Shown here: one piece after another, positions 7,088 through 53,529 of the stretch
How the letters are laid out: the number at the start of each line of letters is the position of its first letter
Position numbering within the stretch: position 1 is the stretch's first letter
Assembly: GCA_965242865.1 (NCBI GenBank)
Contig: CBDETK010000013.1
Span: 3,200,001-3,264,000 of the forward strand
Direction of reading: 5' to 3'
DNA length: 64,000 nt
Source of the DNA: Candidatus Latescibacterota bacterium
GTDB taxonomy: Bacteria > Latescibacterota > UBA2968 > UBA8231
Position numbers and translations under genes: made by a program
The notes under the pieces: generated by a model
What the model saw: only the letters and a program-made list of their open reading frames with translations
Told to the model about the DNA's origin: nothing
The model's database searches: none

Positions 7088-7135
7088 AGCGAACCGCGGG
7101 GATACCCTTTGACGACCCTTCACCTGGAGCATGTC

Positions 7136-11643: not shown

Positions 11644-11784
11644 GGTTCCTGCTCCTGTCGTGTATCTACTTTCCTTATTAGCATCAAGGTATTCATGCCA
11701 AGGAGACGAAGGGCTTAGTGGGTTGGATATGTGAAGCATGTTCCTTTCGGCCTTCGTTTGTCATGGCCTTCTACCCAAAAGAAA

Positions 11785-11904
11785 AGCAAAATGTATGCCA
11801 TACTATCTAACTTTTTGAAAGACAACAAGATGTGTCGAATTGTCCTCCTGAGCACTCCATTGGCAGTGTCCGCTGGTGATACAGGGGTGTCCGCTGGTGA
11901 TACA
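11785..11904 (-). promoter_or_regulatory. sigma54 promoter with IHF-like site and tandem enhancer
   Basis: TGGCATACATTTTGCT (-24/-12) at 11785-11800; TTTCAAAAAGTTA; TGTCCGCTGGTGATACA at 11867-11883 and 11888-11904. Confidence 0.85.
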
Positions 11905-11938
11905 CTCGCGGTGCAACCAGCACTCCCGTCGGCTTCTA

Positions 11939-12100
11939 TCATTTGCTCTGCAAGCCTTTGGTGATCGGCTCGCGCATCAGGGCCACTGTGTGCAACAACA
12001 CTCCCGCACCGGCTGTGGCTGCCACGGCCAAACTGTCCAGCACGAGGAACAGCCAGCCCTCGTCGATCCGCTGCGAGAAATAGATCAGCCACTCTTCGAC
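11939..12100 (-). pseudogene. 3'-end remnant of a third MacB-type permease
   Basis: Near copy of ~9180-9333, ending ...REPITKGLQSK*; cut at 12100. Confidence 0.8.
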
Positions 12101-12192
12101 AGTACGCGACCCTTACTTTGAGTCCGTCTTTTCTGCTGTTGCCGCTACGTCCGGGATCGAGGGCAAGAGGCTCGCGATTCTTGGAAGGCTGG
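12101..12192 (-). repeat. Inverted, diverged copy of the 8140-8231 element
   Basis: AGTACGCGACCCTTACTTTGAGTCCGTCTTTTCTG...CCGGGATCGAGGGC; begins at the permease-remnant breakpoint. Confidence 0.7.
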
Positions 12193-12281
12193 AAGGCTGG
12201 GAGGGGAGTTGGTGTAGTAAGCAGCATACTAAAAACGAAATACGCTGAATTACGGCGTGGCTGGCCTAGCATTACTATCCG

Positions 12282-13592
12282 CTAGCGTACAATGGGAGAG
12301 GCCCCTAGAATCCCGGCCCATCCTTCGTCCTGTAACTCTACAGCGTGTTCCATGCCTTGGATTATATTGTCCTCAATGGAGCAATACGTCCAAGCCCCAT
12401 AACGACCGATGCTGCTGATGCCAAAGTGCCCCAACTCGCTCCTCTGTCTAGCGGCTTCTCGTTGCGCCAAAGGAGTTATGTGGACGTACGCCGGTGCCAT
12501 GATCACCGAATGCCAGTCCACCAATTTGTGCCCTCGGATTATGCCGCATCCCTCCAATTCAACTAGCACCCGGTCTAGCGTCCTTCTCACTACTGACTCA
12601 TCAACGCGGGCTGCCATAGGCAGTCCTACTTCCACGTAGAGGCTCATCTCGTCGGAGGCGAAAAGGTTGTCGTAGAAACCAACCCGATAGAAGGAAAGAT
12701 CGACTTGCGGGAAATACACCCAATGAACGCCCTCCCAGCTCTTGCGGTCGAAGCCTAAGTTGAAAACTAGCACCTTGCTACAGGTATAAGCATCTGGACC
12801 GTAGTCCCAATCGCATACATCGAGGAACCGAGGTAGTGGAATCGTGTTGACCAACCTGTCGTAGGCCCACGTTCTCTTATTGGTCACTACGGTTTTCTTG
12901 GATATATCGACCGCTAAAACCTGTTCGTTGACGCAGATATTTTCGGCGGGGATATCCTGCGCTAGGGCTTTCACATACTCAAAAGCCCCACCTGCTGGGT
13001 AGGCGAACTCAGCATTGTAACTGGTGTCCTCGCCATGGCCCCGGAAATTCTGGACGATCTCTTCCACCCTGACATGTGGAAAGAATCTCCCCAGCGCCTC
13101 GGGGGCCAAGCGGTCTAGATCCACCGAATAAACCTTCTCGTTGTACGGGATTAGGAACTTTTCCGCAATCGAGTGTCCGTAATGGGCGATGAGCATGTCC
13201 TTGAAGGTGTGTACAACGCGATTTTCGCGAAACAACAGATCGTATAGACACGCTAGGAAATCCGCTTTTTTAAGCTGGTGTATATTCTGTTGGAACGGAT
13301 AATCCACCAATTGACCGTCGTAATATATATAGCACCGCTTGGCCCCTTTGTAGATGCGTTGCGGCTCCATGCGCGAAAAGAGGTATTGCTCAATTTCCTG
13401 CCTCTGAAAATGAAAAAAGTGGCCGGAGTAGTCCCAAGTATAGCCATTGCGCCTAATCGTTTTGCAGTATCCCCCTATTTCCGGCTCCCTCTCGATAATT
13501 GCGTACGCATCATCGGGAAGCCAATTCGCCACCGCTAGTCCAGTAATGCCGCCGCCAATTATCACATATTCTCTTTCCTCTGTATCGCGCAT
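12282..13592 (-). CDS. FAD-dependent oxidoreductase (protoporphyrinogen/amine oxidase, UDP-galactopyranose mutase-like superfamily)
   Basis: IIGGGITGL, GGYCKT, WDYSGHFFH, GRYGAWTY. Confidence 0.8.
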   Translation of the reverse strand: MRDTEEREYVIIGGGITGLAVANWLPDDAYAIIEREPEIGGYCKTIRRNGYTWDYSGHFFHFQRQEIEQYLFSRMEPQRIYKGAKRCYIYYDGQLVDYPFQQNIHQLKKADFLACLYDLLFRENRVVHTFKDMLIAHYGHSIAEKFLIPYNEKVYSVDLDRLAPEALGRFFPHVRVEEIVQNFRGHGEDTSYNAEFAYPAGGAFEYVKALAQDIPAENICVNEQVLAVDISKKTVVTNKRTWAYDRLVNTIPLPRFLDVCDWDYGPDAYTCSKVLVFNLGFDRKSWEGVHWVYFPQVDLSFYRVGFYDNLFASDEMSLYVEVGLPMAARVDESVVRRTLDRVLVELEGCGIIRGHKLVDWHSVIMAPAYVHITPLAQREAARQRSELGHFGISSIGRYGAWTYCSIEDNIIQGMEHAVELQDEGWAGILGASPIVR

Positions 13593-13607
13593 AACAGTAT
13601 CTCCGTA

Positions 13608-14420
13608 CTAAAAGGAGGCGTCCCGGACCACCGAGGCGATTCGACGAATGGCGACGTTCTGACGCGGACCGGTCCTTGCTACTGGGCGGTTCCAGTACGG
13701 CGGACAGGAGAGACGCCATTGATCTCCAGCGCGGCCTTTATCGCGCCCAGTATAGACGTAAGCTACTGAGGCGAGAACCTCGTCCGCGTTATTCCCACCG
13801 TGTTTTTCCAACTCTTGGAGTAACTGAGATTTCACTCTGTGCCCCAGCATGTCTATTTCGGATTCGGTCTCTATCTCTTTGGCTAAATCCACTGTCTGTT
13901 GCCATGCACATCCTTGGCGGATCATCCCGACTATCTTGCGTTTGCGGTCCAAGGTCTTGAGATACTGGCCTATGGAATCAACCGGATCTATCACCCAGAC
14001 CATCTTGACGAGCGGGCTTTCCTCGGCGAGCCAGATCCCCATATTCGCCCCCAGTCTGCAACCGACTATGGTCAAGCGCGAGGTATCAATATGGCCGCAG
14101 TCCCGCAGCAGGAAATTGAGGCCAACCTGATAATCCCGGCGCAGCTCATTGAGATTTGAAGACGCTATTTCGCCGCCTGTATTCCCGTGTCCCTGCGGTT
14201 CTACTCGGACGACGGACATCCCCAACTGCGCCATGGCCCGGCACAAATCAACCGACCAAGTGTAGCTGGCATAGAATTCGGTCAGCAAGGGATGCAGGTA
14301 GAGTACCGGCCGGCTCTGGCCATGGAGAGTACTTTTGGGCTGGTAGTGCGCGTAGTACAACCGCCCATCGAGTACGCCGTGCATCTCTCGACATTTCTCG
14401 CCCAACTCAACCGGCTGCAT
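13608..14420 (-). CDS. alpha/beta hydrolase-fold protein resembling exosortase A-associated hydrolase 2
   Basis: GHGNTGG and atypical elbow VGCRLGA; GGAGG RBS before ATG 14420. Confidence 0.65.
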   Translation of the reverse strand: MQPVELGEKCREMHGVLDGRLYYAHYQPKSTLHGQSRPVLYLHPLLTEFYASYTWSVDLCRAMAQLGMSVVRVEPQGHGNTGGEIASSNLNELRRDYQVGLNFLLRDCGHIDTSRLTIVGCRLGANMGIWLAEESPLVKMVWVIDPVDSIGQYLKTLDRKRKIVGMIRQGCAWQQTVDLAKEIETESEIDMLGHRVKSQLLQELEKHGGNNADEVLASVAYVYTGRDKGRAGDQWRLSCPPYWNRPVARTGPRQNVAIRRIASVVRDASF

Positions 14421-15543
14421 TGCAAGCCTCCCAGTACACTTCCTTGTATCTCTCGCACATTGCATTGAAGTTCCAACGGGCGACCCCTTTGCGTGCTCGC
14501 TCTCCCATCTGTTTGAGCTGTCCGCGGTCATTGAGTAAGTGAACGACTGCCGCCGCTCCTCCTTCGGTATCGCCCCGCCCAATCAGAACGCCAGCCTTTG
14601 TCTCTTCGATGATCTCGATGCAGCCATCGACGCGAGTACATACTACGGGGACGCCCGCCGCCATGGCTTCCAAGACCACAAGGCCCAATCCCTCGTGTGC
14701 CGACATCAGTACAAACACATCCATCGCCGCCATGATAGCGGGCACATCGCGCCGCCAACCTAGTAGGCGGATGCTTTCTTCCAAGCCGTCGCGGTCTATT
14801 TGGCGTTGAATTTCCTGTCGCAACTCTCCGTCGCCGACCACTACTGCCGTCATATTGGGGATCGCATTCCGCACCTGCTTACACACTTCCACAAAATCCC
14901 CGACCCGTTTGCCGGGCTTCATACAACTCACAGTACCGATCACGACACCGTCGCCCCGCAGACCAAGCGCGGCTCTGGCCTGACTACGAGTCGGTAGCTT
15001 GGCGAACTGGAGAGCGTCGAATCCCCCGGAAATCACCCTCACCCTTCCATCCGGTGCGAGACCGTGCTCCATGCAGGTCTTTTTTAACCTTTCCGAAACC
15101 ACGACTTGGACCGCCGACAGCTTGGCGGCCAACCGCTCGCAGGTCAGATAGACCTTTTCGACCGGACTCATCGCCGAGACGTCGCAACCTATACCGTGGA
15201 CCGTATGGATGCACGGAATGTGTAGCAATCGCGCCGCCACCCGGCCGATCAACCCAGCCTTTGGCGTATGGGTGTGGACAATGTCCGGTTTGAACCGACT
15301 GAGCAGGCTCATTATCCGAACCAACGCTCGGAGATCTTTGAAAGGTGTTATTTCCCGGCGGAGCGTCGCTACCGTGATTACTTCTACCCCTCGTGCTCCC
15401 CGGAGATCTTGCAGCAGCAGTCCGCGCTCATTGGTTATGACGCAGACTTGCCAATTGGACTGCGCCAACCGGCTGGCCAACTCAATGACTATACGCTGCG
15501 CCCCGCCAAGCTGTAGTTCGGTTATTATCAACGCTATTTTCAC
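14407..15543 (-). CDS. Glycosyltransferase family 4
   Basis: GGAQR, DIVHTHTPKAG, EGLGLVVLEAMAAGVPVV. Confidence 0.92.
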   Translation of the reverse strand: MKIALIITELQLGGAQRIVIELASRLAQSNWQVCVITNERGLLLQDLRGARGVEVITVATLRREITPFKDLRALVRIMSLLSRFKPDIVHTHTPKAGLIGRVAARLLHIPCIHTVHGIGCDVSAMSPVEKVYLTCERLAAKLSAVQVVVSERLKKTCMEHGLAPDGRVRVISGGFDALQFAKLPTRSQARAALGLRGDGVVIGTVSCMKPGKRVGDFVEVCKQVRNAIPNMTAVVVGDGELRQEIQRQIDRDGLEESIRLLGWRRDVPAIMAAMDVFVLMSAHEGLGLVVLEAMAAGVPVVCTRVDGCIEIIEETKAGVLIGRGDTEGGAAAVVHLLNDRGQLKQMGERARKGVARWNFNAMCERYKEVYWEACNAAG

Positions 15544-15564
15544 GATTTCTCTCCTCGCACTGGC

Positions 15565-16569
15565 CTAGCTATGGGGACGGGGCAACTTGGCTAGTCGGTC
15601 GCCTAGGACAACCATCAACCCCACCAAGCTGCCAACGCATATCCACGTGTAGCTTTGGGCTTGGCCAAAGACGAGTACGGCCAAGATGCCCAGCAGACCT
15701 GTACTTACGACAGCGGCCAACACCAATTGAACGCCGGTAAGGCCGACGGCCCCCAACCGATGCGCCAGATGGTCGCGGCTCCCCTGTAGGATCGGTATTC
15801 CGCGACGCCACCTGCACAGCGAAACGAGCAGCACATCTAGGACGGGCACGGCCAAGACGAGACCGGCTGCCGCCCAGTCTTCTATGCGCTTAGTCCCCAC
15901 GCCCAACTTGATGCACAGGACGCCCAGCAGGAAACCGAGTAAAAGGCTCCCGCCATCCCCCAAAAACATTCGAGCCCGAGGAAAGTTGAAAAACAGAAAC
16001 GCAACCGTGGCACCGACGATCGCGATGCTAGTCAGCGCAACGGGTGCGTCGCCCGCATAAAACCCGAGCACAGCGATAACCGCGGCAGCGGTGGCGGCAA
16101 CCGCGGCGGCTAGACCATTGGCTACGTCGAGGATATTAAACGCATTGGTCAACAGCACGAGCCATGCTGAGGCGGCCACCACCCACAACCAGTCAGCGCC
16201 GATCAACGCATAGGCCACCAGCGGGCAGACGAGGAGTTGGACTGACAACTTGAACCGAGCCGACAGTCCGATCTTGTCGTCGATAGTCCCCAGCACCAGC
16301 AAGACTAAGGCCCCAACCGCAACTCCTTGGCCCAACAGGTCAACGGGATGCTGACCAATGAACGCCAAGGCCAAGACGCTGGCCAAGCACAAGGCTAGCC
16401 CTCCCAGATACGCGACGGGTTCGGCGTGCCGCTTGAGTTTGCCATTGGGCTGGTCAACTATGCCTAGCGTTCGGGCCACAAAAATCGCCACCGGCGACAA
16501 GGCCACGCCCAAGGAAAACGAAACGGCTGTCAGCATTAGTAAGGGCCAAGTGTCCCCGTCAAGTTCCAT
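15565..16569 (-). CDS. MraY/WecA-family polyprenyl-phosphate HexNAc-1-phosphate transferase
   Basis: Polytopic membrane protein; GTIDD, NAFNILD, FLGDGGS, DHLAHRL. Confidence 0.88.
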   Translation of the reverse strand: MELDGDTWPLLMLTAVSFSLGVALSPVAIFVARTLGIVDQPNGKLKRHAEPVAYLGGLALCLASVLALAFIGQHPVDLLGQGVAVGALVLLVLGTIDDKIGLSARFKLSVQLLVCPLVAYALIGADWLWVVAASAWLVLLTNAFNILDVANGLAAAVAATAAAVIAVLGFYAGDAPVALTSIAIVGATVAFLFFNFPRARMFLGDGGSLLLGFLLGVLCIKLGVGTKRIEDWAAAGLVLAVPVLDVLLVSLCRWRRGIPILQGSRDHLAHRLGAVGLTGVQLVLAAVVSTGLLGILAVLVFGQAQSYTWICVGSLVGLMVVLGDRLAKLPRPHS

Positions 16570-16603
16570 TGTAGCACCTCTTTTCCCGACCCCCGACGAT
16601 CAG

Positions 16604-17182
16604 CTAACGGAAGTCGATATATCCCACGCCGATATAGTAGATTAAGGCCGCGGTTTCATACGCGAGTTGCCAAGCTAACTTGAACGGGTTTTCTGTAGAA
16701 TTGCCAAAACCAAGTACTGGGGCTAATCGCCACGATGCCTGTTGCACCGCAATCCCCTTCGATGAAAAGGTCGCCGCCGTGCGCAACAGATGCAGTGGGT
16801 ACGTGACGAGGATCGCCTCTTGCCAGTCTTGGTTGCGGAAAACTCGCTCTATGGTTCTGGCCTCGCCGTACGTCCCGCCCGGGTGCGAAGCCGAGACCGA
16901 AACCGTGCTGTTGGGGGGTATGCCCGCCGCCGCCGCCGCCCGCAATGGGGCGAACACCACTACTTTGGGAGCCATCCCCTGCTCGTAAAGTTCGGCGGCG
17001 CAATCCAACGCCCGAGCGACCTCTCTGCTCGGTCCACTCGGCACAACTATAGCGTCGGCTCGACCGCCGATGTGCGGTACGTAAAAGGCGCGATGCACAA
17101 TCCAAGCGGCGAGTGCCAGCATAATGCCCAAGCTGACCGCCAATAAGCCCACAGCCGCTTTTGTAGAGTAATTGTATCCCAT
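16604..17182 (-). CDS. YdcF/DUF218 (ElyC/SanA-like) protein
   Basis: N-terminal TM; ADAIVV, TYGEA, ILVTYPLHLLR, YETAALIYY. Confidence 0.7.
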   Translation of the reverse strand: MGYNYSTKAAVGLLAVSLGIMLALAAWIVHRAFYVPHIGGRADAIVVPSGPSREVARALDCAAELYEQGMAPKVVVFAPLRAAAAAGIPPNSTVSVSASHPGGTYGEARTIERVFRNQDWQEAILVTYPLHLLRTAATFSSKGIAVQQASWRLAPVLGFGNSTENPFKLAWQLAYETAALIYYIGVGYIDFR

Positions 17183-17212
17183 CGCGGATATCCTCCTCTT
17201 CTATCCACTTTC

Positions 17213-18019
17213 TTACTTCAGCTTTCTGACGGCCCGTACCAACTGCGGGCAACTCCCTGCCAGTTTTTCGGACAACCGCATACGACGCACCCAAGCCGAC
17301 GACACCCAATTGTGCCGCCGGTCCCCTCGGCCTCCCAACTTCGCAACCACGCCTTGAGAATCGTCGTGGTCGTATAGCTCTCGCCGCTTGAGGAAATACG
17401 GATCCGACCGATGCGTATTGGTCCCCGCGACCGTGCTGCATGCTCCAGCATAACCGCACTCGATCACTACGCGCCGTACGCGGGCTGTTGCCAGCCCTCG
17501 CGGGTATGCGAAATACCGCACCGCTTTGCCGAGTCGATCCTCAATCCTGCGCTTTGAATCGCTTACTTCGCGGTAAATCCCGTCGAGGCTGAGCCGGGTA
17601 AGCATGGCGTGGGTCGCGCTGTGCGAACCAATTTCGACTCCCGCTGCGGACAGGGCCGCAATGTCTCGCCATCCGAGTAACTCCCTTCCTTCCAGCCGGC
17701 ACCCGACGAGATCGCTGACCACAAAGACGGTTGCTTTGAATCCGAAACGCTCCAACAGGGGCATGGCCTCGGTCAACACGCTCGCATAGCCATCGTCGAA
17801 AGTGATGGCAATTTCCCGATCAACCGAGTGGTTCCCCCAGCCGTAAAGCCTCTTCACCGACCTCTCAAGCGCAGTGGTGACATAGCCTAAGTTGCGAATG
17901 GCCTCAAGGTGCTCTGCGAACCTCCTCGGGGACACGCTCAACGGACCGTCCCCGGCCTCTATCGCATGGTAGGTCAGGATGGGGAGGGCACTGCGTCTTT
18001 GCGTTTTTTCTTTAGACAT
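17213..18019 (-). CDS. Polysaccharide deacetylase (CE4, IcaB/PgaB-like)
   Basis: PILTYH, ITFDDGY, EIGSHSATH, FAYPRG. Confidence 0.9.
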   Translation of the reverse strand: MSKEKTQRRSALPILTYHAIEAGDGPLSVSPRRFAEHLEAIRNLGYVTTALERSVKRLYGWGNHSVDREIAITFDDGYASVLTEAMPLLERFGFKATVFVVSDLVGCRLEGRELLGWRDIAALSAAGVEIGSHSATHAMLTRLSLDGIYREVSDSKRRIEDRLGKAVRYFAYPRGLATARVRRVVIECGYAGACSTVAGTNTHRSDPYFLKRRELYDHDDSQGVVAKLGGRGDRRHNWVSSAWVRRMRLSEKLAGSCPQLVRAVRKLK

Positions 18020-18854
18020 AGCAATGCTCCGGTTGTGCTCGTCTGACCACCGGGCTGGGCGCAGAAAGCCAATCCACCGTCATCTGGACGACTTCCTTTA
18101 CTTTATCGTGCGAACGGTAGGAGTGGTCGCTATCCTCGACCGTTCTCGCCTCGAATGATATGCCGCCGATACTGCGGCACAACGCCTCATAGTCGCGGGC
18201 GCAGTCGCGGCTAGAGGGGTCGCCAGAGGGATAGATGCCGAGTGCGTGGACGGTTGCGCGGAAGCGGTCTTTGGGCACGAGGTTTTCGATGGGTATATGG
18301 TCAAGACTTTCTTCTTCAGAGGCGTCCACCCCTCTCGGACGGGCGAATTGGTTCTTGGCCTCGGCGTATAAACCCCAGAACTCCACGACCGCGGCTTTCA
18401 GGTATTTGGCGGACCGGCGGATGTCCATGGAGCGCTTATCGGCTAGTTCGGTGGGACTCCACATCACTAACCTTTGCCAGTTCACCGCCGCCTTTGCGAG
18501 ACAATAGAGCACCACCCAAGCACCAAAGCATTGGGCCACGCACGAGACCGCCTCAATGTCCGCTTCGCTTTCCAAGAAGCGTACGCTCTGGACGCAATCG
18601 CCCACTGGAGTGAATTGGCTGCCGGCTTCGCTGTTGCCCCGTCCGCCAAAATCGAACCGGAGACAGTGGAAGCCGGCATCTGCCAGTTGGCGTGCGCCGT
18701 ACACGTACATGCTATGGTCTCCGAACAGATGATCGGGTTCGCCGGGGACGAATAGTACGCCGTGCCGCAGGTCATGCCTAGGGCTAGGCTGATGCAGTAC
18801 GCCAAGGAGTTGGCTGTTTTCTCCTCGATAGACAACGGGTCGCTCGTTGGTCAT
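18012..18854 (-). CDS. alpha/beta hydrolase-fold protein resembling exosortase A-associated hydrolase 1
   Basis: LLGVLHQP, CLRFDFGGRGNSE, Cys elbow AQCFGA, C-terminal DSDHSY. Confidence 0.7.
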   Translation of the reverse strand: MTNERPVVYRGENSQLLGVLHQPSPRHDLRHGVLFVPGEPDHLFGDHSMYVYGARQLADAGFHCLRFDFGGRGNSEAGSQFTPVGDCVQSVRFLESEADIEAVSCVAQCFGAWVVLYCLAKAAVNWQRLVMWSPTELADKRSMDIRRSAKYLKAAVVEFWGLYAEAKNQFARPRGVDASEEESLDHIPIENLVPKDRFRATVHALGIYPSGDPSSRDCARDYEALCRSIGGISFEARTVEDSDHSYRSHDKVKEVVQMTVDWLSAPSPVVRRAQPEHCYV

Positions 18855-19044
18855 GGGTTGCCCCTTTGCTGAGAACGATTATCGATCATTCTCATGGTGC
18901 TTGTTCCTTCCTACCTTGCATTTGCTTGTCGTCTGGTATCGCTTTTACTATGCCAAGGAGACGAGGGGCTTCGTTGGCTTGAGAGAGCCTAGCAATACGG
19001 CTACGGATAAGTGGACCTATCCTAGGTTCACCTATGGGACACTG

Positions 19045-19221
19045 CTAGTCGGGATCGCAACATTTATCTGTCGAGTAAACGCAGGTCTCCGTTCTCCGGA
19101 ACAGCGTTTCCTGTATCCACATGCTGGTGTAGTTGGACCGCTGCTCTGGCTTGCACTCGACGTGATACCCGAAAACGACCTTGCGGTTGTGCGCCCGGTT
19201 TCGCTTCGTCAGCTTTTTCAT
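19045..19221 (-). CDS. 58-aa Cys-rich putative RiPP precursor peptide, copy A
   Basis: AAGGAGGTGAAGT-ATG; MKKLTKRNRAHNRKVVFGYHVECKPEQRSNYTSMWIQETLFRRTETCVYSTDKCCDPD*; first gene after a sigma54 promoter; below the ORF-track cutoff. Confidence 0.8.
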   Translation of the reverse strand: MKKLTKRNRAHNRKVVFGYHVECKPEQRSNYTSMWIQETLFRRTETCVYSTDKCCDPD

Positions 19222-19368
19222 ACTTCACCTCCTTCCTCAGGCCCCTCGGTCTCCTTGGCGTGATGCCCAACAGGTGGTCTCATTGCCCGCCTCCTTTCTG
19301 ACCCTGTTGGATATGTGAAGCATGTTCCTTTCGGCTTTCGTTTGTCATGGCCTTCTACCCAAAAGAAA

Positions 19369-19488
19369 AGCAAAATGTGTGCCATACTATCTAACTTGTT
19401 GAAAGACAACAAGATGTGTCGAATCGTCCTCTTGGGCACTCCATTGGCACTGTCCGCTGGTGATACAGGGGTGTCCGCTGGTGATACA
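19369..19488 (-). promoter_or_regulatory. sigma54 promoter with IHF-like site and tandem enhancer
   Basis: TGGCACACATTTTGCT at 19369-19384; TTTCAACAAGTTA; 17-mers at 19451-19467 and 19472-19488. Confidence 0.88.
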
Positions 19489-19535
19489 CTCGCGATACCG
19501 ACCTGACGAAAACCAGCGTCCTCCGTCGGCCTCTC

Positions 19536-22022
19536 TCACTCGCTCTGCAAGCCTTTGGTGATCGGCTCCCGCATTAGGGCCACTGTGTGCAACAACACCC
19601 CCACACCGGCAGTGACCGCCGCGGCCAAACTGCCCAACCCCAAGAACAGCCAGTCATCGTCGATCCGTTGCGCGAACTGGTTCAGCCACTCTTCGACGCC
19701 CAAGTGCGCCAAAGGCCCGATTAGCAGGCATCCCGCCAACACCAACCACAGCAGTCGCCGCGCCAACAGGCTGGCCACATGATGCCCCTGAGCTCCCAAC
19801 GTCCGCATGAAGGCGATATTGCGCCGCTGATGGGACACCGTAATCGCCGTCAGGCCGTATGCCCCCAGCGCGGCGATCAGCACGGCCAACAGGGCCGCCC
19901 CCCCGACGACCCATAGCCAGATCCGGTCGTCTTGGTAATAAGCGACCAAGAAGTCTTCGAGCCTTGACAGATGCAGTACTTCGTCTGGGGCTACAGCTTT
20001 CCACGTACGCTCGATATGATCAAGAGCCTCGTTGCCTGCCTTGGGGTCGAGGCGTACGAAGAGCAACTCGTGCTGATTTACAGAGGAGTTGAGCAAGAGC
20101 ACCCCCGGCTCTTCAGAGTTGTTTTTTAGCGAATAAAAGTAATAGTCGCTCAGTACGCCTACGACGCGGCCTTGTCCATTGGGCATCTGACGGGCTAGGC
20201 GTTTCTCAAACTGCACGACTTGGCCGATGGGCTGATCCCAACCGGCTCGGGCGACGAAGGTCTCATTAACCAGAATGCCCGCTTGGTCCGGGCCCAAGTC
20301 TGTGCCCTGAACGAGTTGGAGGCCGAGCGTCTCGACAAAATGCCGATCCACGCCTAGACAACGCGCCTCAATAGTGCGGTCCTCACTGGGCAACATCGTC
20401 TTTTTTATCCACGGTGCCCCGCCCAATTCTTTCTCTAAAAAATGATCCTTACTCGTAGCCACCGACTTGATCCCACTATGGGCGAGCAGTCGCTCCTTGA
20501 GTAACTGCCGGTGTCTGCTATGGATGTCCTGGGACAACTCCCTTATTCTGAGCACCAGCACGTCGGCGGACACAAAGCCCAGATCGAATACCTGCAAGTG
20601 GTGCAGTTGCCGAACCATAACCAAACTCGTGCCCGCCAGCCCAGCACAGGCAGCGAACTGCATCACCACTAACGCACTGCCCAACGTAGATCGGCGGCTG
20701 AGCAAACGGGTGCTACGTACGGCCTCGCTGGGATTGGTCCGCGCAAGGATTAGGCCGGGATAGGCGGCGGCTAGTAGGCTGGTCAGCACCAACAGGACCA
20801 GCCCGCCAACGATGAAGGGGGGGGCAAGGTAATCGAGACGCAGGTCCTGACCCAACACCGCGTTGAACGCCGGCAACAGGGCTTCGCTGAGGCCCAAGCC
20901 GATTACTAGCGACACACCACACACCATCACCGTCTCGATCCAGAACTGCACCGGCAGTTGTCGACGGGTGGCTCCCAAGGCGACGCGCACCCCAACTTCT
21001 AGCCCGCGTGTACTCGCCCGAGCCGTAGCCAAGTTGACGTAGTTGACCACGGCTACGGCTAGCAGGAGCACGGCGATCGCCAAGACGATATAGGTCTCCA
21101 ATGGGTCGTGCGGCGAGGCGATACTTTCGTATCCTTTCCACTGCGTCACATCGGGGTCCGTGTGTATGGCCGACAGGGGTTGCAATTCCACTCTAAAATT
21201 CACCCCACGATCTACCTCTTGGCTGAAATCGGATGCGTTTTCAAGTACTAACTGCCGCATCAGTTCTTCTGCTTGCTTCAAATCGCCATCGTTGGCGTTC
21301 TCTTGAAACCTGACGAATAGGACGCTTCCCCAGTCCCAGAAGTCATCAAGCCAGCCCCATAGATACTCGGAGTTGTGAAAGGGCAACAGGATATTCAACT
21401 GAATCGACGAGTTCGCCGGCGGCGGGGCGACCACGGCTTGGATGGTGTATTCCTTGCGTTCGGATTGGGGCCACCCCACATCGATCCGTATTACCTGCCC
21501 CACCGCTGGCTCGTCTCCGAAGTAGCGGCGGGCGAACTCGCGGCTGACCACGACGCCGTCTTTTGCCTGCAGAGCCGTCCGCGGATCGCCCGCGTCGAGG
21601 GGGAAAGAGAACACCTCAAAGAAATTCTCATCGACCAGCAGAAACGGCTCGTCGTTCCACCTATCGCCTATCCGCACACGGATGCGCCGACTTTCCAGTG
21701 ACGCCCCGCGACTGGAAACTAACCGGACCGTTTCTTCAACTTGGGGCACGGCGTTCTGGATCGCCTCGGCCATGGCGACCGGAGTGTGATCCCCCATCTT
21801 CCTATTACCATATACTGGGCTTTTGGCACTGAACACCACTCGATAGAGGTGCCCCCCTTTCTCATGGAAGCTATCGTAGCTCCACTCGTGCGACACCAAC
21901 GCGTGGGCTAGAATGCAGGCACCAAAAGCCAGCGACAAACCGCACACCTCAATGAAGCTCAACAGCTTGTGCCGTCGCAGGATGCGCACGGCGGTCCGTA
22001 AGTAATTACCGATCATTCTCAT
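19536..22022 (-). CDS. MacB/FtsX-type ABC transporter permease; paralog of 9172-11643
   Basis: Same motifs and closely similar sequence throughout; ends REPITKGLQSE. Confidence 0.9.
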   Translation of the reverse strand: MRMIGNYLRTAVRILRRHKLLSFIEVCGLSLAFGACILAHALVSHEWSYDSFHEKGGHLYRVVFSAKSPVYGNRKMGDHTPVAMAEAIQNAVPQVEETVRLVSSRGASLESRRIRVRIGDRWNDEPFLLVDENFFEVFSFPLDAGDPRTALQAKDGVVVSREFARRYFGDEPAVGQVIRIDVGWPQSERKEYTIQAVVAPPPANSSIQLNILLPFHNSEYLWGWLDDFWDWGSVLFVRFQENANDGDLKQAEELMRQLVLENASDFSQEVDRGVNFRVELQPLSAIHTDPDVTQWKGYESIASPHDPLETYIVLAIAVLLLAVAVVNYVNLATARASTRGLEVGVRVALGATRRQLPVQFWIETVMVCGVSLVIGLGLSEALLPAFNAVLGQDLRLDYLAPPFIVGGLVLLVLTSLLAAAYPGLILARTNPSEAVRSTRLLSRRSTLGSALVVMQFAACAGLAGTSLVMVRQLHHLQVFDLGFVSADVLVLRIRELSQDIHSRHRQLLKERLLAHSGIKSVATSKDHFLEKELGGAPWIKKTMLPSEDRTIEARCLGVDRHFVETLGLQLVQGTDLGPDQAGILVNETFVARAGWDQPIGQVVQFEKRLARQMPNGQGRVVGVLSDYYFYSLKNNSEEPGVLLLNSSVNQHELLFVRLDPKAGNEALDHIERTWKAVAPDEVLHLSRLEDFLVAYYQDDRIWLWVVGGAALLAVLIAALGAYGLTAITVSHQRRNIAFMRTLGAQGHHVASLLARRLLWLVLAGCLLIGPLAHLGVEEWLNQFAQRIDDDWLFLGLGSLAAAVTAGVGVLLHTVALMREPITKGLQSE

Positions 22023-22171
22023 GGTGCTTGTTCCTTCCTACCTTGCATTTGCTTGTCGTCTGGTATCGCTTTTACTATGCCAAGGAGACGAGGGGCTTCG
22101 TTGGCTTGAGAGAGCCTAGCAATACGGCTACGGATAAGTGGACCTATCCTAGGTTCACCTATGGGACACTG

Positions 22172-22348
22172 CTAGTCGGGATCGCAACATTTATCTGTCG
22201 AGTAAACGCAGGTCTCCGTTCTCCGGAACAGCGTTTCCTGTATCCACATGCTGGTGTAGTTGGACCGCTGCTCTGGCTTGCACTCGACGTGATACCCGAA
22301 AACGACCTTGCGGTTGTGCGCCCGGTTTCGCTTCGTCAGCTTTTTCAT
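22172..22348 (-). CDS. 58-aa Cys-rich putative RiPP precursor peptide, copy B (identical to copy A)
   Basis: Same RBS and sequence as 19045-19221. Confidence 0.8.
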   Translation of the reverse strand: MKKLTKRNRAHNRKVVFGYHVECKPEQRSNYTSMWIQETLFRRTETCVYSTDKCCDPD

Positions 22349-22495
22349 ACTTCACCTCCTTCCTCAGGCCCCTCGGTCTCCTTGGCGTGATGCCCAACAG
22401 GTGGTCTCATTGCCCGCCTCCTTTCTGACCCTGTTGGATATGTGAAGCATGTTCCTTTCGGCTTTCGTTTGTCATGGCCTTCTACCCAAAAGAAA

Positions 22496-22615
22496 AGCAA
22501 AATGTGTGCCATACTATCTAACTTGTTGAAAGACAACAAGATGTGTCGAATCGTCCTCTTGGGCACTCCATTGGCACTGTCCGCTGGTGATACAGGGGTG
22601 TCCGCTGGTGATACA
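22496..22615 (-). promoter_or_regulatory. sigma54 promoter with tandem enhancer
   Basis: TGGCACACATTTTGCT at 22496-22511; 17-mers at 22578-22594 and 22599-22615. Confidence 0.88.
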
Positions 22616-22726
22616 CTCGCGATACCGACCTGATGAAAACCAGCACACCCTAATACCCCATCACGGCGTATCCATACGTAGCCGCCTCTGCGCTCCGAGA
22701 TGCGTTTTAATAGCGATTTCATGGCA

Positions 22727-23011
22727 CTATACCGAGACAGCCCGTCTGGATACGAATTCTGCTAGGGCTCGCAAACTACTCAGCACTTCGGGATTGAGGT
22801 CGTCGTCGTCAAACTCAAAGCCGAATCGTTCTTCTATTTCTTGCACATAAGTCAGAATTTCAACGGAATCCATTCCAAGGTTGCCGTCGAGAAGGGCTTC
22901 GTCCAAATCAATCAGATTCGGATCTATATCCACCTCCGTCACCTCCAAGAGTAGCACCTGTAACTCGTATAGGAGGCGTTCCATTCGACTATCGCCAGAT
23001 TGGCTCTCCAT
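22727..23011 (-). CDS. Acyl carrier protein
   Basis: 94 aa, acidic; LGMDSVEIL phosphopantetheinylation motif; IEERFGFEF; AGGAGG RBS. Confidence 0.9.
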   Translation of the reverse strand: MESQSGDSRMERLLYELQVLLLEVTEVDIDPNLIDLDEALLDGNLGMDSVEILTYVQEIEERFGFEFDDDDLNPEVLSSLRALAEFVSRRAVSV

Positions 23012-23114: not shown

Positions 23115-24887
23115 TTATCCCACAGCCGCCGCGAAGTGCCTACGACCCTGTATCTCTTCTGTCCCATCCAACGCAAAAAGCTGCTGAAAATGCTTTCCCT
23201 TTCTCTTCATTTCTGCTGGAGTCCCCTCTTCTACAATTCTTCCGTTCTCAATGCAGAAGACCCAGTCCATTCTTTCTATGACTTCTACATTGTGGCTCAC
23301 TACTATGGTGAACATGTTTTTTCGAGTTTCCAGCAGTTCCAAAACCGATTCTTCCATCTGTCCATCCACCATTGAAGTGCCCTCGTCTATGACTAAAATA
23401 TCGGGATCAGACATTAGTGCTCTCGCTATGCACACCCTCTGCCGTTGTCCGCCCGACAGCCGCGCCCCATTATCACCAATTGTCGCACCGCTAGCCTTCT
23501 CTGTGACGAGTTCAGGTATCCTAAGAGAGTGCAGTATCCTATCTGCATCGGCGACCTCCTCCTGCTTTCCATAAAGCACGTTATCCAACACAGGCCGATT
23601 GAAAAGCAGTGTTTCCTGCGGCACCATGCCGATATTCAGATCCTTCAACTTTATGCTGTCTTTGCCAAATGCACTATGGACGGCTATCTCTCCATCCATG
23701 GGGTCCAAAAGCCCGCACACCATATTGACCAACGTAGTCTTTCCGCTCCCGTTCTCGCCCACAAGCGCGTAGCGCATGCCTCTTTTGAGGTCGAGGTCAA
23801 TGTCGTGCAGAACCAACCCTCCGTGATAGCCTGCTGAGACTTTTCTCATTGTTATCCGCGAGCATTCGGGCCGATTTCGTCTTTCTCCAGCTAGTTCGAT
23901 AGTGTCTTTTAGATGCAGGTTTTCCAGTTCCTCAATCCGCCTCAACGAGACGCTGCCCTCTACCAAGGTCGTATATACTCCCCCTAACTTCCTGACAGGT
24001 TCCACGAGCCAGTTGATGTACTGGCCAAACGCGACGAGAGCCCCAACGGTCATATCCTCCTCTAGTACATCGTGGGCACCGACGAGTAGAACCAAGATCG
24101 GCCCTAAGCCGAGGAAAAACGAGGAACAGGAATGTCTGGTCGCGCCGAAAACCGTGCGCTTTACTTCGAGATCGCCGAGAGCACCTACTTCTTTCTTAAT
24201 ATCCTTGGTAGTATTGGCCCCTTGGGCAAAGGCTTGCACCACCTTCAAGTTCTGGTAAGTCTCCACGAAACGGGCCGTGAGGCGACTTTTGCATTCAGTG
24301 GACATCTGGGTGTACTCTAAGAGCTTGGCTTGAGTAAATTTTGCTATCACCAGAAAAAAGGGGAGTCCAATCACGCAAATAAAGAGCAGCTTCAGATTCA
24401 TCCATCCCAGAATGCCCACAATAATCACCAATCGCAACCCATTTTTCACTACATTTAACAGCGTTTGGGTCAAGACCTTCTGCACATTACCGCAATCTGT
24501 CATCGCCCGATACGAAAGGTCAGCGGCGTTAAAATTGCGTAGATTGAAGTACGGGATCTCTATTATTTTTGCCGCGAGTTCCCCACGTAACTTCAGCATG
24601 ATGTTTCTGCCTATATGAGCACTCAACAGGCGTGAGAGTACGGACAGCACTAACCGCACAATCATCAGACCGAACATGCCGAATACGATCCAGATCAATA
24701 GCTCGCCATTGCGCTCTAGGAGCACCTTATCGATAAGCGTCTTGGTCAGTAGAGGCAAAGCGAGCACAGCCGCTATAGAGATGCAACTGAGGATCAGGGC
24801 CAAGAGCTGGAGCCGCCATTCCCAGCTTATGTACTTGACGTACGGAGTTAGCACACTGAGCAAGTTCGCATTTCTCTTAAACATCAC
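23115..24887 (-). CDS. ABC exporter, fused TMD-NBD (peptide/multidrug type, no C39 domain)
   Basis: N-terminal TM helices; GENGSGKT, LSGGQRQR, ILVIDEGTS, VVSH. Confidence 0.92.
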   Translation of the reverse strand: MMFKRNANLLSVLTPYVKYISWEWRLQLLALILSCISIAAVLALPLLTKTLIDKVLLERNGELLIWIVFGMFGLMIVRLVLSVLSRLLSAHIGRNIMLKLRGELAAKIIEIPYFNLRNFNAADLSYRAMTDCGNVQKVLTQTLLNVVKNGLRLVIIVGILGWMNLKLLFICVIGLPFFLVIAKFTQAKLLEYTQMSTECKSRLTARFVETYQNLKVVQAFAQGANTTKDIKKEVGALGDLEVKRTVFGATRHSCSSFFLGLGPILVLLVGAHDVLEEDMTVGALVAFGQYINWLVEPVRKLGGVYTTLVEGSVSLRRIEELENLHLKDTIELAGERRNRPECSRITMRKVSAGYHGGLVLHDIDLDLKRGMRYALVGENGSGKTTLVNMVCGLLDPMDGEIAVHSAFGKDSIKLKDLNIGMVPQETLLFNRPVLDNVLYGKQEEVADADRILHSLRIPELVTEKASGATIGDNGARLSGGQRQRVCIARALMSDPDILVIDEGTSMVDGQMEESVLELLETRKNMFTIVVSHNVEVIERMDWVFCIENGRIVEEGTPAEMKRKGKHFQQLFALDGTEEIQGRRHFAAAVG

Positions 24888-26008
24888 AGTGTAGTCCCGT
24901 GTGGTTCTTCTTTCATCAATCGCAGGCTATTAACGTGCGAGTTGCTGTAGTCAGGCTTGTTCTGCCGCAGGGCAGGACACGCTATCAGCGAAATGCAGCA
25001 GTCCCTAAGTGCCTCTAAATCCAACTCGCGATTCTCTCGGTAGTGTCTGAGGCCATTTTGCAGATGAGGTATAAGGCTTAATGGGATAGTATCGACAAAC
25101 TCGAAAAGATCTAATTCAAATTTGCCGCGCTTGCTGACCTCAAAGTTGTATGTCTTGTACGTAAAAAGCTCAAACAATATCCCGCACAACGCATAATGGT
25201 CTGTTTCCTGCGTGAATTGCTCAAACCGCAAAACCTGCTCAACGGGAGCATAGGCGGGACTGTACTTCCCCATTTTGTACTCTTTGCCCGCCGGGTGAGG
25301 CTCTCCAGCCGTTACTGTCGTCTCGAAATCGACGAGCGTTACCCCTAATTCGCTCAGGCCGACAGAGAACGGATCCCGAGGACACACCATGATATTTCCG
25401 GGGTTAAGATCGAGAAAGACCTTACCTTTAGCGTGTAACAAGCGAAGGGCCTCCGTCAGCTTAGCTGCTACCCACAATTTCATATCGAGGGTCAGTTCTT
25501 GCGGATACTGGTCTCTGCTAGGTATCGGATAGTACTTATGCAGCGACTTGCCTTCAACGAGTTCGTACACGTAATACAGGATTTTGTAGCGCGTTGGGAC
25601 TATGCCTTTGCAATAGTACTTAACCGCCAGTCCCTTCTCGATGGGCTTCGCGAAACTTTCGTGCTCCAACTCTTGGGCAACGTTAAACTCATTGTCGTAA
25701 AATGCCCTTTCGGCCAACCAAGTCCGAGAACCTACTCTGTCCTCACCCTCTGTCTTTACGTCGCCTAGGAGACCGATATCTTGGCTAGGCAGGACGTACT
25801 TTATGAATACCTGTTTTCCGGTCAGAGTGTCTCGGGCTGCGAGGATATTATGACGTCTTGTGGAAAGTCGTTCGGGAGAGAGCCTGTATTTTCCCAGCCG
25901 GTGAATTGGACGTCTCCTCGCTGGCACGACTTTCGGCTCGAGTACGCAGATAGGCATGCTGCGGAAAATCCACTTTGCAAACTGGCGAATGTGCCTGTTG
26001 ATTTCCAT
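24884..26008 (-). CDS. Ser/Thr protein kinase-like protein with LanKC/LanL-like motifs
   Basis: VFIKY, GKVFLDLNPGNIMV, LVDFE, SPAYAPVEQ, TDHYALCGILFEL; AAGGAGG RBS before ATG 26008. Confidence 0.8.
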   Translation of the reverse strand: MEINRHIRQFAKWIFRSMPICVLEPKVVPARRRPIHRLGKYRLSPERLSTRRHNILAARDTLTGKQVFIKYVLPSQDIGLLGDVKTEGEDRVGSRTWLAERAFYDNEFNVAQELEHESFAKPIEKGLAVKYYCKGIVPTRYKILYYVYELVEGKSLHKYYPIPSRDQYPQELTLDMKLWVAAKLTEALRLLHAKGKVFLDLNPGNIMVCPRDPFSVGLSELGVTLVDFETTVTAGEPHPAGKEYKMGKYSPAYAPVEQVLRFEQFTQETDHYALCGILFELFTYKTYNFEVSKRGKFELDLFEFVDTIPLSLIPHLQNGLRHYRENRELDLEALRDCCISLIACPALRQNKPDYSNSHVNSLRLMKEEPHGTTL

Positions 26009-26056
26009 GTTAGCCTCCTTTATGTAGCAATCGCGGTAAGTTCTTGCTCGCACCCA

Positions 26057-26695
26057 TTAGCGGGACGCATCAGCGACCACTCCTTTCGTTGCACAACTGG
26101 CCAAGAACCGGCGACGGCTTTCCTCTATATCGTCGGCAAATTGCTCGACCATAAAATCGCCGATGCGCCCCGAACTATCGACGCAGAGCATGACACCGTG
26201 TATTTCTCTCGATCCGAGCAGTTGTAGCAACGGTTCTGGCACATGCTCCTTTTCTATTGTGACAGGCTTTCTTTTGGGAGCGTACGAGGCACTTATCTCC
26301 AGCACCTTTATCAGGCTCTCCTCCCCTTCAAACGCGCCGATGTAGAGCGGCTCGTTTCCAATCTCCAGATTGCTTTGTCCCTCGTACCAGTACCCAAACA
26401 TATCGACGTAACAGGCACCGCACTTTGCCTTGTCGTCGAATAGCATAATTATATCGCCATCTCGCCGAATAAAATCTCCCAAGCGGACTATCTCTACCCC
26501 CTGCCGAGTAGGCAACTCGTCCAAGGCGAGTCCCAGTACCCGATCTCCCGCGACTTCCAAGGCAACTTCCCTCTTTAACTCCTCGATCTCGTGCCGGCGC
26601 TCGTCCCGGCCTTGGTTCTTGCCAACCAAGAAAGACACCCCTATGGCTAGGGCCGCCAGCAGCACAACGGCCAACCGTCTGATGTGTGTCATCAT
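26057..26695 (-). CDS. Membrane-anchored CxxC protein, possible thioredoxin-like fold
   Basis: N-terminal TM; IIMLFDDKAKCGACYVD; AAGGAG RBS before ATG 26695. Confidence 0.5.
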   Translation of the reverse strand: MMTHIRRLAVVLLAALAIGVSFLVGKNQGRDERRHEIEELKREVALEVAGDRVLGLALDELPTRQGVEIVRLGDFIRRDGDIIMLFDDKAKCGACYVDMFGYWYEGQSNLEIGNEPLYIGAFEGEESLIKVLEISASYAPKRKPVTIEKEHVPEPLLQLLGSREIHGVMLCVDSSGRIGDFMVEQFADDIEESRRRFLASCATKGVVADASR

Positions 26696-29802: not shown

Positions 29803-29923
29803 AGCAAGATGTATGCCATGTTCTATATACTATTGAAAAACAAGGAGATGCGTTGAATCGGCCTCTGGACCGACCTAAGGGCGAGTGTCCGCTGGTGATA
29901 CAGGGGTGTCCGCTGGTGATACA
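29803..29923 (-). promoter_or_regulatory. sigma54 promoter with tandem enhancer driving the maturation operon
   Basis: TGGCATACATCTTGCT at 29803-29818; 17-mers at 29886-29902 and 29907-29923. Confidence 0.88.
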
Positions 29924-30035
29924 CTTTAGCTCACAGGCAGGACGATGCGTAGCGTCCGCGATTGACTTGGGGGGATGGACTCGTTATATGTCTCAGATAT
30001 GAACTACAAACGCTTGGAACTTGGGAGCGGCGACC

Positions 30036-31408
<1,373 letters not shown>

Positions 31409-31412
<4 letters not shown>

Positions 31413-33460: not shown

Positions 33461-33580
33461 CCTAAATCTCCTCAAGTGAATGAATGATTGAACGATTGCC
33501 CCAAAAAAGCCCCATCGCGCACAATTCGCGCAATCGGGCCAGATTACCAATAATCCGCTTTATCAGTAGTCTAATACCCC

Positions 33581-43527: not shown

Positions 43528-43529
43528 CT

Positions 43530-51705: not shown

Positions 51706-51715
51706 GAACGTCACC

Positions 51716-53414: not shown

Positions 53415-53490
53415 AAAATAGAATTCCCAAATTGTATTGTCAAGGTGTGCGGCCGGGCCGTTTGACAGTCGCGGACCGGCGTGGTACTGT
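53415..53490. promoter_or_regulatory. Divergent sigma70-type promoters (tRNA and PhyH gene)
   Basis: Minus strand TTGACA-N17-TATTTT (53443-53415); plus strand TTGACA-N17-TACTGT (53462-53490). Confidence 0.6.
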
Positions 53491-53529
53491 TGCCCTGCAC
53501 ACAGAGACCGCCCCGCTGAGGAGAACCAC

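Follow-up and report, generated by a model that had tools for sequence, protein, structure and literature searches.

In the 64,000-nucleotide stretch of a Candidatus Latescibacterota genome considered here (contig CBDETK010000013.1, positions 3,200,001 to 3,264,000; the window), comparative sequence analysis indicates that an unannotated open reading frame (ORF) of 58 codons, located at 19045-19221 on the minus strand (stop codon included), is a real protein-coding gene. By the same evidence its product is a precursor peptide with a conserved basic leader of 19 residues, a hypervariable core, and four fixed Cys residues. It is likely that this ORF represents a genuine gene for the precursor of an exported, leader-cleaved, Cys-containing peptide, either bacteriocin-like or resembling a peptide that is made on ribosomes and modified after translation (RiPP). 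A second copy is present on the same strand at 22172-22348, and both copies encode the same 58 residues, MKKLTKRNRAHNRKVVFGYHVECKPEQRSNYTSMWIQETLFRRTETCVYSTDKCCDPD, of which residues 1-19 form the leader and 20-58 the core. The initial annotation had reported a 58-residue ORF in two identical copies, with four Cys and eight Ser/Thr among the last 39 residues and a terminal CCDPD; the translation agrees on each of these points. That annotation had also described the ORF as missed by the ORF track. It is indeed absent at the usual limit of 60 residues, but this is a mere effect of length, since the ORF is listed once the minimum is set to 40. The exact protein is already present, without a name, in a 5.8-billion-protein collection (NCBI and ENA sources).

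Evidence for coding comes from comparison with relatives. A six-frame search of 61 related genomes revealed clear homologues in three others, all of the same genus (E 1e-29 to 6e-8): one has a single copy at 79% identity, another has four (three of them distinct) on one contig, and the third has two. Within the phylum the family is found in 4 of 168 genomes, all of this one genus. The 5.8-billion-protein collection contains 23 members, none named and none with a Pfam domain, and a profile search of 1.84 billion cluster representatives recovered only 3. In the alignment of the 23 members, residues M1, K3, L4, K6, R7, N8, R9, K14, G18, Y19, C23, C47, C54, and C55 are invariant. The leader follows the nearly invariant pattern MKKLTKRNR..RK..FGY, whereas the interval between C23 and C47 varies in both sequence and length, with indels that are all whole codons. 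The core is rich in Ser/Thr and has a conserved S/T-N/D-Y/H-T-T-T stretch (S-N-Y-T-T-T).

The substitutions show the same division. Summed over the 21 pairs of 7 distinct genes, the 19 leader codons give a proportion of synonymous differences (pS) of 0.340 and of nonsynonymous differences (pN) of 0.066; because pairs among relatives are not independent, their ratio of 0.195 shows a direction and is not a test. When the window gene is compared with its nearest relative, pN/pS is 0.19 in the leader and 0.74 in the core. The sense frame is open in all nine copies (9/9), while the other frames carry stops, except for the antisense frame with which it shares codon boundaries. The ATG and a purine-rich, AAGGAG-type ribosome-binding site (RBS) are kept in all nine homologous copies, the RBS reading AAGGAGGTG in eight (AAAGGAGGTG in two of these) and AAGGAGAAT in one.

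Each gene copy is embedded in a cassette on the minus strand that forms one unit of a direct repeat of 624 nt (18883-19506 and 22010-22633) with 100% identity, the first flanking mismatches falling at 18882 and 19507. Cassette copy 1 consists of two upstream activator sites (UAS), a predicted sigma-54 promoter, a 5' untranslated region (UTR) of about 150 nt, the RBS, the peptide gene, and 162 nt of downstream DNA, which contain a 13-nt remnant of a permease gene start. The 3' end of cassette copy 2 enters the true start of an ADOP/MacB permease gene. Because the 13 nt at the end of copy 1 are the permease start that lies downstream of copy 2, copy 1 is a duplicate of the copy-2 unit that stands before a hydrolase gene.

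An RBS, a promoter element, and paired repeats lie upstream of the ORF. (Positions in copy 2 are given second.) The RBS AAGGAGGTG (19226-19234; 22353-22361) ends 4 nt before the ATG. The -24/-12 element TGGCACACATTTTGC (19370-19384; 22497-22511), which has the form TGGCAC-N5-TTGC, begins 163 nt upstream of the ATG, and the tandem 17-mer TGTATCACCAGCGGACA, a repeated sequence and putative activator site, occurs twice (19451-19488; 22578-22615), at -267 and -246. The strong RBS and the first position after a sigma-54 promoter, which the initial annotation had reported, are seen at both copies. Among the nine homologous copies, the sigma-54 motif is found at -163 to -175 in seven, the exceptions being the second gene of a tandem pair and a gene at a contig end.

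Read depth also bears on the duplication. In contigs of two public runs, a 484-nt unitig of the repeat has a depth of 24.9 versus 10-15 for its flanks, and of 417 versus 177-198. This roughly twofold depth fits two copies; the runs are possibly the assembly's own source, and so the agreement is not independent. (Public-run contigs cover the stretch only in part, none from end to end.) In contigs of three runs, position 18877 is joined to 19538, skipping 660 nt, with a shorter side of only 26-30 letters; these joins may represent strains that lack cassette copy 1 or may be an artefact of the repeat. A terminator scan gave 5 sites versus 3.7 expected, none of them directly 3' of either peptide gene copy, and the fold of the spacer 3' of the peptide gene has a z of -1.66. 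Three long ORFs overlie the promoter/UTR cassette (18847-19263, plus strand, 138 residues; 22345-22722, minus strand, 125 residues; 11715-12272, minus strand, 185 residues). They yield tblastn matches wherever the cassette recurs, and they look like artefacts of conserved non-coding DNA rather than genes.

Genes for putative processing and export functions adjoin the peptide gene, and together with the conserved leader and variable core they give the features generally found with a leader-plus-core precursor. Reading along the minus strand, the first gene (27816-29759) encodes a 647-residue, predicted cytoplasmic protein in which a subtilase (S8) domain is fused to a DUF1611/TIGR04066-like P-loop domain. 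The subtilase has conserved Asp/His/Ser motifs, S204 showing no variation among 15 sequences, and the fusion matches Peptidase_S8 (2e-7), QhpE (90.8 bits; cut-off 165), and DUF1611 (1.8e-11). TIGR04066 aligns to residues 276-517 with 63.2 bits (cut-off 200), and paralogues reach 99-124 bits over nearly the whole model. The next gene (26746-27813) encodes a 355-residue lipoprotein with the lipobox ILGC that probably folds as a DUF5128-type, 6-bladed beta-propeller, and is followed by that for a membrane-anchored, 211-residue protein with an invariant C-x-x-C (26057-26692), probably a periplasmic thiol-disulfide oxidoreductase. Then come genes for a Ser/Thr-kinase-like protein (24884-26053), whose best NCBIfam matches are the kinase domains of LanL (4e-13) and LanKC (2e-9), for the half-transporter of an ATP-binding cassette (ABC) exporter with a transmembrane domain and an ATPase (23115-24887), and for an acyl carrier protein (ACP) that has kept its DS(V) motif (22727-23011). 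Peptide gene copy 2, a duplicated FtsX permease of the ADOP/MacB type (19536-22022; TIGR03434 4e-66, DarB 2e-18), and peptide gene copy 1 complete this series. No signal peptide is found on the fusion, the kinase-like protein, or the ACP; the propeller has its lipobox and the CxxC protein its membrane anchor.

This gene order is kept in relatives, and in one of them a member of the peptide family is positioned directly between the sigma-54 promoter and the S8-DUF1611 gene. The initial annotation had linked a leader-plus-core precursor to the S8 fusion, and had suggested tBLASTn near homologues of that fusion as a check, expecting a conserved leader and a variable core. The family alignment and the gene context support the link, and the search returned just such peptides.

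The peptide family is narrow, but its gene context is broad, and sequence comparison suggests that this context is a peptide-processing set built around the fused protease. Within the phylum, the subtilase-DUF1611 fusion (E<=1e-10) is found in 88 of 168 genomes, from 26 of 49 genera, often in multiple copies, and also, with 34% identity, in a metagenome-assembled genome of the Melioribacteraceae. At the distant loci its recurring neighbours are an ACP-like gene, a CxxC redoxin, a DUF5128 lipoprotein, a MacB-type permease, and an ABC exporter. The membrane-anchored CxxC protein of these loci matches Redoxin/AhpC-TSA above the Pfam threshold, and the lipoproteins match DUF5128 (6-bladed beta-propeller) at 2.4e-14 and 1.6e-12. 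The kinase-like gene is limited to the genus-level variant, as is the S/T-N/D-Y/H-T-T-T stretch; distant systems lack the kinase.

Small ORFs that start with ATGAA(A/G) and have a hydrophobic-aromatic-[GLA]-Y motif within residues 9-30 were sought at 15 fusion loci. (Two of the 15 are duplicate entries for the other-family loci described next, and repeat the same ORFs.) At seven of seven loci from another family of the phylum, in which the fusion is 37-40% identical, there is a small ORF of the form MK.L[ST]KP........IYGYE with a variable, Cys-containing core, preceded by the strong RBS AAAGGAGGTGAT. Three Melioribacteraceae contigs contain four ORFs of the form MKK...YLYE with Cys-rich cores. 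The shared leader pattern is matched by 2 of 46,651 ATG-initiated ORFs (30-110 residues) of the window's own genome, both of them the window copies, although this count is a weak control because the pattern was written after both families had been seen.

The same genome has two paralogues of the fusion elsewhere on contig 13, which are 36-38% identical (L049, 2917535-2919361; L050, 3593456-3595300). The neighbours of L050 include an ABC exporter, a DUF5128-like protein, a solute-binding protein, a histidine kinase, and its own sigma-54 activator, with a 47-residue ORF ending in CCCCG upstream. L049 lies near genes for an ACP, a BtrH_N-like protein, a histidine phosphatase, a glycosyltransferase, tetratricopeptide repeat proteins, and a CAAX-type protease.

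Several observations weigh against the interpretation as a processed precursor, or against parts of it. The two window copies are identical in DNA, and hence by themselves say nothing about selection. In 7 of 9 copies the antisense frame with shared codon boundaries is open as well; the excess of sense-synonymous change favours the sense frame. The leaders of the different peptide families resemble one another only at the level of a motif: the window-family profile recovers peptides from its own genus only, the other family's profile fails to recover the window family, and three of the scanned fusion loci (the two own-genome paralogues and one other) have no ORF with the leader motif. Pfam, NCBIfam, BLASTP, and hhalign give no match for the window's CxxC protein or lipoprotein, and the AlphaFold2 models of these proteins are poor and unusable (pLDDT of 37.5 and 40.2, respectively). 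A sequence search of the PDB gave nothing useful for either one, and BLASTP and hhalign detect no significant similarity between them and their positional counterparts in Melioribacteraceae. The redoxin and propeller identities are thus probable assignments by analogy, made mainly from gene position in the distant loci, together with motifs and language-model features (0.95 for redoxin-like clusters with the CxxC protein, 0.87 for propeller clusters with the lipoprotein). Finally, the nearest relative carrying the peptide (loci L023/L024) lacks the S8 fusion, and several of its cluster genes appear fragmented. In these loci the ABC gene is in three pieces and the permease in two, the kinase, ACP, and WecA-like genes are truncated, and the interval that separates the cluster from the activator gene is too short for the S8 fusion or most of the propeller gene. 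The peptide ORF there is intact; no second cassette is present, and the hydrolase gene comes straight after the permease. Either the peptide gene persists without the fusion, or the cluster is decaying, or the assembly contains errors. A complex prediction for the fusion with the peptide scored 0.25, where 0.32 marks a verdict, and gives no evidence either way.

Other explanations of the ORF have been weighed against these data. The resemblance of the kinase-like protein to the kinase domains of LanL and LanKC, the class III/IV lanthipeptide synthetases, raises the question of a lanthipeptide-like precursor, in which Ser/Thr residues would be phosphorylated, the phosphate eliminated, and Cys residues added to form thioether rings. 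The Ser/Thr-rich core, its conserved S-N-Y-T-T-T stretch, and the four fixed Cys suit such chemistry. However, the match covers the kinase domain only and stays far under the cut-offs (48.6 bits versus 650), and no lyase or cyclase domain is found in the cluster, which thus has nothing equivalent to the trifunctional synthetases of classes III and IV. In addition, distant sister systems without the kinase retain the periplasmic CxxC redoxin, which points to disulfides, and thioether rings are improbable.

The peptide could also act without being cut, as a small secreted or cytoplasmic protein whose basic N-terminus is functional in its own right, for example in the binding of a partner or of a polyanion. 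Conservation is highest in the N-terminal 19 residues of the protein, and cleavage is itself a prediction from sequence. Nevertheless, the usual signature of a leader and core is seen here: the N-terminus is conserved and the C-terminus hypervariable, paralogues occur in tandem, and the system has its dedicated subtilase and exporter. An uncleaved protein is quite unlikely.

A third possibility is that the ORF is regulatory, being an upstream ORF, a leader peptide, or a chance ORF in a conserved 5' UTR that controls the downstream permease or hydrolase genes. The ORF comes first after the promoter, conservation extends to the 150-nt UTR, and one cassette works without a peptide gene. The UTR at 19222-19369 is well conserved between species, including an internal GAAAGGAGGCG, despite the diverged peptide core. 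Yet the leader codons are under purifying selection, conserved Cys residues lie within the variable core, and the peptide gene precedes three different downstream genes and also occurs in tandem arrays. Moreover, the UTR has no structure supported by covariation (for six 5' UTRs the covariation term of RNAalifold is +0.81, and of 31 pairs 1 is compensatory), and Rfam gives no match within 18700-19600. A regulatory role is accordingly very unlikely.

The initial annotation had likened the leader to that of the CLI_3235-type (TIGR04065) precursors; as a member of that family, the peptide would be matured by a radical S-adenosylmethionine (radical-SAM) enzyme to a sactipeptide-like product. The leader pattern that it named does fit, and the window, like the cluster described in the available text of PMC10731318, has a TIGR04066-like domain, a subtilase, an ACP, and an ABC exporter. 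The precursor, however, does not belong: none of seven family peptides matches any NCBIfam model, TIGR04065 included, at E<=10, a six-frame search of the whole genome with TIGR04065 (membership cut-off 26 bits) gives no match at E<=10, and no radical-SAM domain is found in the 55 window ORFs (21 + 34) scanned against Pfam. The TIGR04066 match (63 bits versus 200) and that of TIGR04069 to the ACP (14.6 bits versus 70) would indicate only kinship at the superfamily level. As an assignment of the precursor the proposal is hardly tenable; as a lead to the system, through the TIGR04066 match below cut-off, the subtilase, the ACP, and the ABC exporter, it has held up. A double-glycine/C39 bacteriocin was considered and rejected, because the leader ends in F-G-Y with no double glycine, and ABC_membrane begins at residue 29 of the exporter, which has no C39 domain.

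Taken as the precursor of an exported, leader-cleaved peptide, the product of this gene can be placed in a proposed pathway whose steps (cleavage after GY, export, periplasmic disulfides, and any phosphorylation or acylation) we infer from sequence and gene context. The NtrC-type activator encoded at 30021-31412 would turn on all cluster promoters. The cytoplasmic subtilase domain would then cut off the leader after Y19 (V-F-G-Y|). The initial annotation had predicted a cut near GY|H, and a cut at this place, just after Y19, is plausible because conservation stops there and indels begin, a two-residue deletion directly after Y19 being present in 4 of the 23 members. The sequence V/I-F/Y-G/L-Y is common to all three leader types and would provide a hydrophobic P4 and an aromatic P1; subtilases favour just these residues at P4 and P1.

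The fusion of the protease to DUF1611 and the constant presence of the ACP suggest a second step coupled to cleavage, in which the DUF1611 domain with the ACP may cap or acylate the N-terminus. Some fusion paralogues weakly match the N-acetyltransferase DgcN (best 1.6e-8), and the one CLI_3235-type product that was expressed has an N-terminus blocked to Edman degradation according to the available text of PMC10731318. These two observations prompt the guess of N-acylation, which by analogy is conceivable but doubtful. The kinase-like protein may phosphorylate Ser/Thr residues in the S-N-Y-T-T-T stretch; phosphorylation of this S/T-N/D-Y/H-T-T-T sequence is a tentative suggestion, possible but not probable. 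The ABC half-transporter would carry the peptide into the periplasm, where the CxxC protein and the propeller lipoprotein would oxidise or fold C23, C47, C54, and C55 into two disulfides. The ADOP/MacB permeases might then expel the product or protect the producer, maybe using a co-regulated HlyD adaptor and ATPase. In the most far-reaching reading, the peptide would be the substrate of an undescribed maturation pathway, in which a subtilase-DUF1611 fusion cleaves the leader and, with the ACP, caps or acylates the N-terminus, and a CxxC redoxin and DUF5128 propeller fold the exported peptide; in this complete form the scheme is rather unlikely.

The closest described relative, as far as sequence comparison indicates, is the CLI_3235 system, which is a distant cousin. 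NCBIfam represents it by TIGR04065 (precursor), TIGR04066, TIGR04068 (the radical-SAM protein 'CcpM'), and TIGR04069 (ACP-related). In the available text of PMC10731318, the CLI_3235-type cluster of SacP23 from Paenibacillus polymyxa (Firmicutes) has separate genes for the precursor, an ABC transporter, a radical-SAM enzyme, a TIGR04066 protein, an ACP-related protein, and a subtilisin-like protease. The precursor has a predicted 19-residue leader, although the authors doubt their own SignalP-based cut site, and the product is a secreted antimicrobial peptide. To judge from that text, the two systems share a short precursor with an N-terminal leader and a Cys-rich core, a subtilisin-like protease, an ABC exporter, and one protein each of the TIGR04066/DUF1611 and ACP types. 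The window system differs in that there is no radical-SAM maturase, the precursor is undetected by TIGR04065, and the host is not a Firmicute. It also has an added CxxC membrane protein, propeller lipoprotein, kinase-like protein, MacB-type permeases, and sigma-54 control. By analogy, the radical-SAM enzyme is replaced here by the putative periplasmic redoxin-propeller pair, plus the kinase in the genus-level variant. Furthermore, the protease and DUF1611 are one polypeptide, and the joining of two proteins that stand apart in the Firmicute system is an argument for coupling between leader cleavage and DUF1611 activity.

Other known systems resemble parts of the cluster. QhpE is a subtilisin-like peptidase that cleaves the leader of QhpC, the small subunit of quinohemoprotein amine dehydrogenase. 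It is the best NCBIfam match of the subtilase domain, with paralogues scoring up to 147.6 bits, and like it the window enzyme is a cytoplasmic subtilase without a prodomain that presumably acts on a small, Cys-containing peptide. However, all scores lie under the 165-bit cut-off, and there is no QhpD-type radical-SAM enzyme and there are no genes for dehydrogenase subunits; the cluster is not of the QhpC/QhpE kind. On the export side, heat-stable enterotoxin II of E. coli is a disulfide-bonded peptide secreted in two steps via a MacAB-type pump. As in MacAB export and that of darobactin by DarB, which the window permease matches, MacB/FtsX permeases are found here alongside Cys-containing peptides and a probable periplasmic thiol oxidoreductase; the difference is that the window's duplicated ADOP permeases have no ATPase of their own, and export and oxidation are predicted steps.

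A literature search yielded nothing on DUF5128 and nothing on DUF1611 with RiPPs, most subscription journals being outside the search, and none of the 15 matches listed for DUF1611, subtilisin, or 'precursor peptide' contained DUF1611. TIGR04066 or TIGR04068 is named in three papers. The available part of a paper on sponge Latescibacterota mentions only generic antiSMASH RiPP classes. Sequence comparison places the family as a new one within a broader variant, itself undescribed, of a maturation system that is poorly characterised.

Regulation of the cluster appears to depend on sigma-54. The arguments for such promoters are the GG (-24)/GC (-12) spacing, the upstream repeats, and the presence in the genome of both rpoN (encoding sigma-54) and an activator gene. 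The motif TGGCAY-N5-TTGC occurs 4 times in the window versus 0.41 expected, a count reached in 0 of 100 shuffles, and the 17-mer occurs 8 times versus 0 expected. All of these sites are on the minus strand within one gene cluster, where they form four promoter plus UAS-pair units, two of them with a peptide gene. A third cassette (11722-11910; UAS pair 11867-11904, promoter 11786-11800) has a promoter and UAS that are 96% identical to the repeat, but its peptide gene is deleted, and it directly precedes the second ADOP/MacB permease gene (ORF 9172-11739), whose true start is probably near 11658. The fourth promoter (29804-29818) and UAS pair (29886-29923), also on the minus strand, lie before the S8-DUF1611 operon and are divergent from the gene for an NtrC-type response regulator (30021-31412, plus strand). 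This predicted sigma-54 activator has a receiver, an AAA+ domain, and a Fis-type helix-turn-helix (Response_reg 8e-23, Sigma54_activat 2.2e-66, HTH_8 3e-15). A histidine kinase gene (HATPase_c; 35631-36965, plus strand) lies 4 kb away and encodes a candidate partner as sensor; no kinase gene directly adjoins that of the activator.

Conservation across species covers the UAS, an A/T-rich spacer, the -24/-12 elements, and the 5' UTR of about 150 nt. Genome-wide, the exact 17-mer is found ten times: the eight in the window plus one tandem pair on contig 13 at 5187330/5187352. This fifth UAS pair, with its own TGGCACACATCTTGC, precedes genes for an HlyD-family adaptor, an ABC ATPase, and an 811-residue MacB-type permease (whole locus 5187330-5192072). 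The HlyD-ATPase-MacB operon is probably a member of this regulon and a possible source of the adaptor and ATPase missing from the orphan ADOP permeases of the window. The cluster can thus be read as one sigma-54 activator that, through five identical tandem binding sites, would govern the peptide, its processing genes, and the pumps.

Downstream of peptide copy 1 on the minus strand (12282-18854), and before the peptide-less cassette and the second ADOP/MacB permease gene, lie genes for two alpha/beta hydrolases that resemble hydr1_PEP and hydr2_PEP, a polysaccharide deacetylase, a DUF218 protein, a WecA-like transferase, a GT4 transferase, and an FAD oxidoreductase; their arrangement indicates that they are co-transcribed or co-regulated with this copy. 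Two ankyrin-repeat proteins (32156-34018, minus strand) are encoded next to the cluster. Elsewhere the window has a type I restriction-modification locus (38279-46049, plus strand) with HsdM, HsdS, and HsdR, in which an AAA_21/AbiEii-like ATPase and an HNH nuclease lie between S and R, and four scattered PhyH-type dioxygenase genes (7109-8116, 47672-48583, 51689-52450, and 53437-54354). Some of the public runs that contain part of the stretch (shares 0.15-0.38) are labelled sponge metagenome, and no RNA run is listed among the public runs with this DNA.

These findings turn an unannotated 58-codon ORF into a testable precursor. They also expose a conserved, uncharacterised set of genes, comprising the subtilase-DUF1611 fusion, an ACP, a CxxC redoxin, a DUF5128 propeller, and ABC and MacB transporters, that accompanies small Cys-containing peptides in many uncultured bacteria, including relatives from sponge metagenomes. 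Through this set, DUF1611/TIGR04066 and DUF5128 gain a concrete functional context. If the proposed pathway is true, these peptides would constitute a RiPP-like family that is new and has a leader code of its own, MK.L.K...hydrophobic-[FY]-G-Y.

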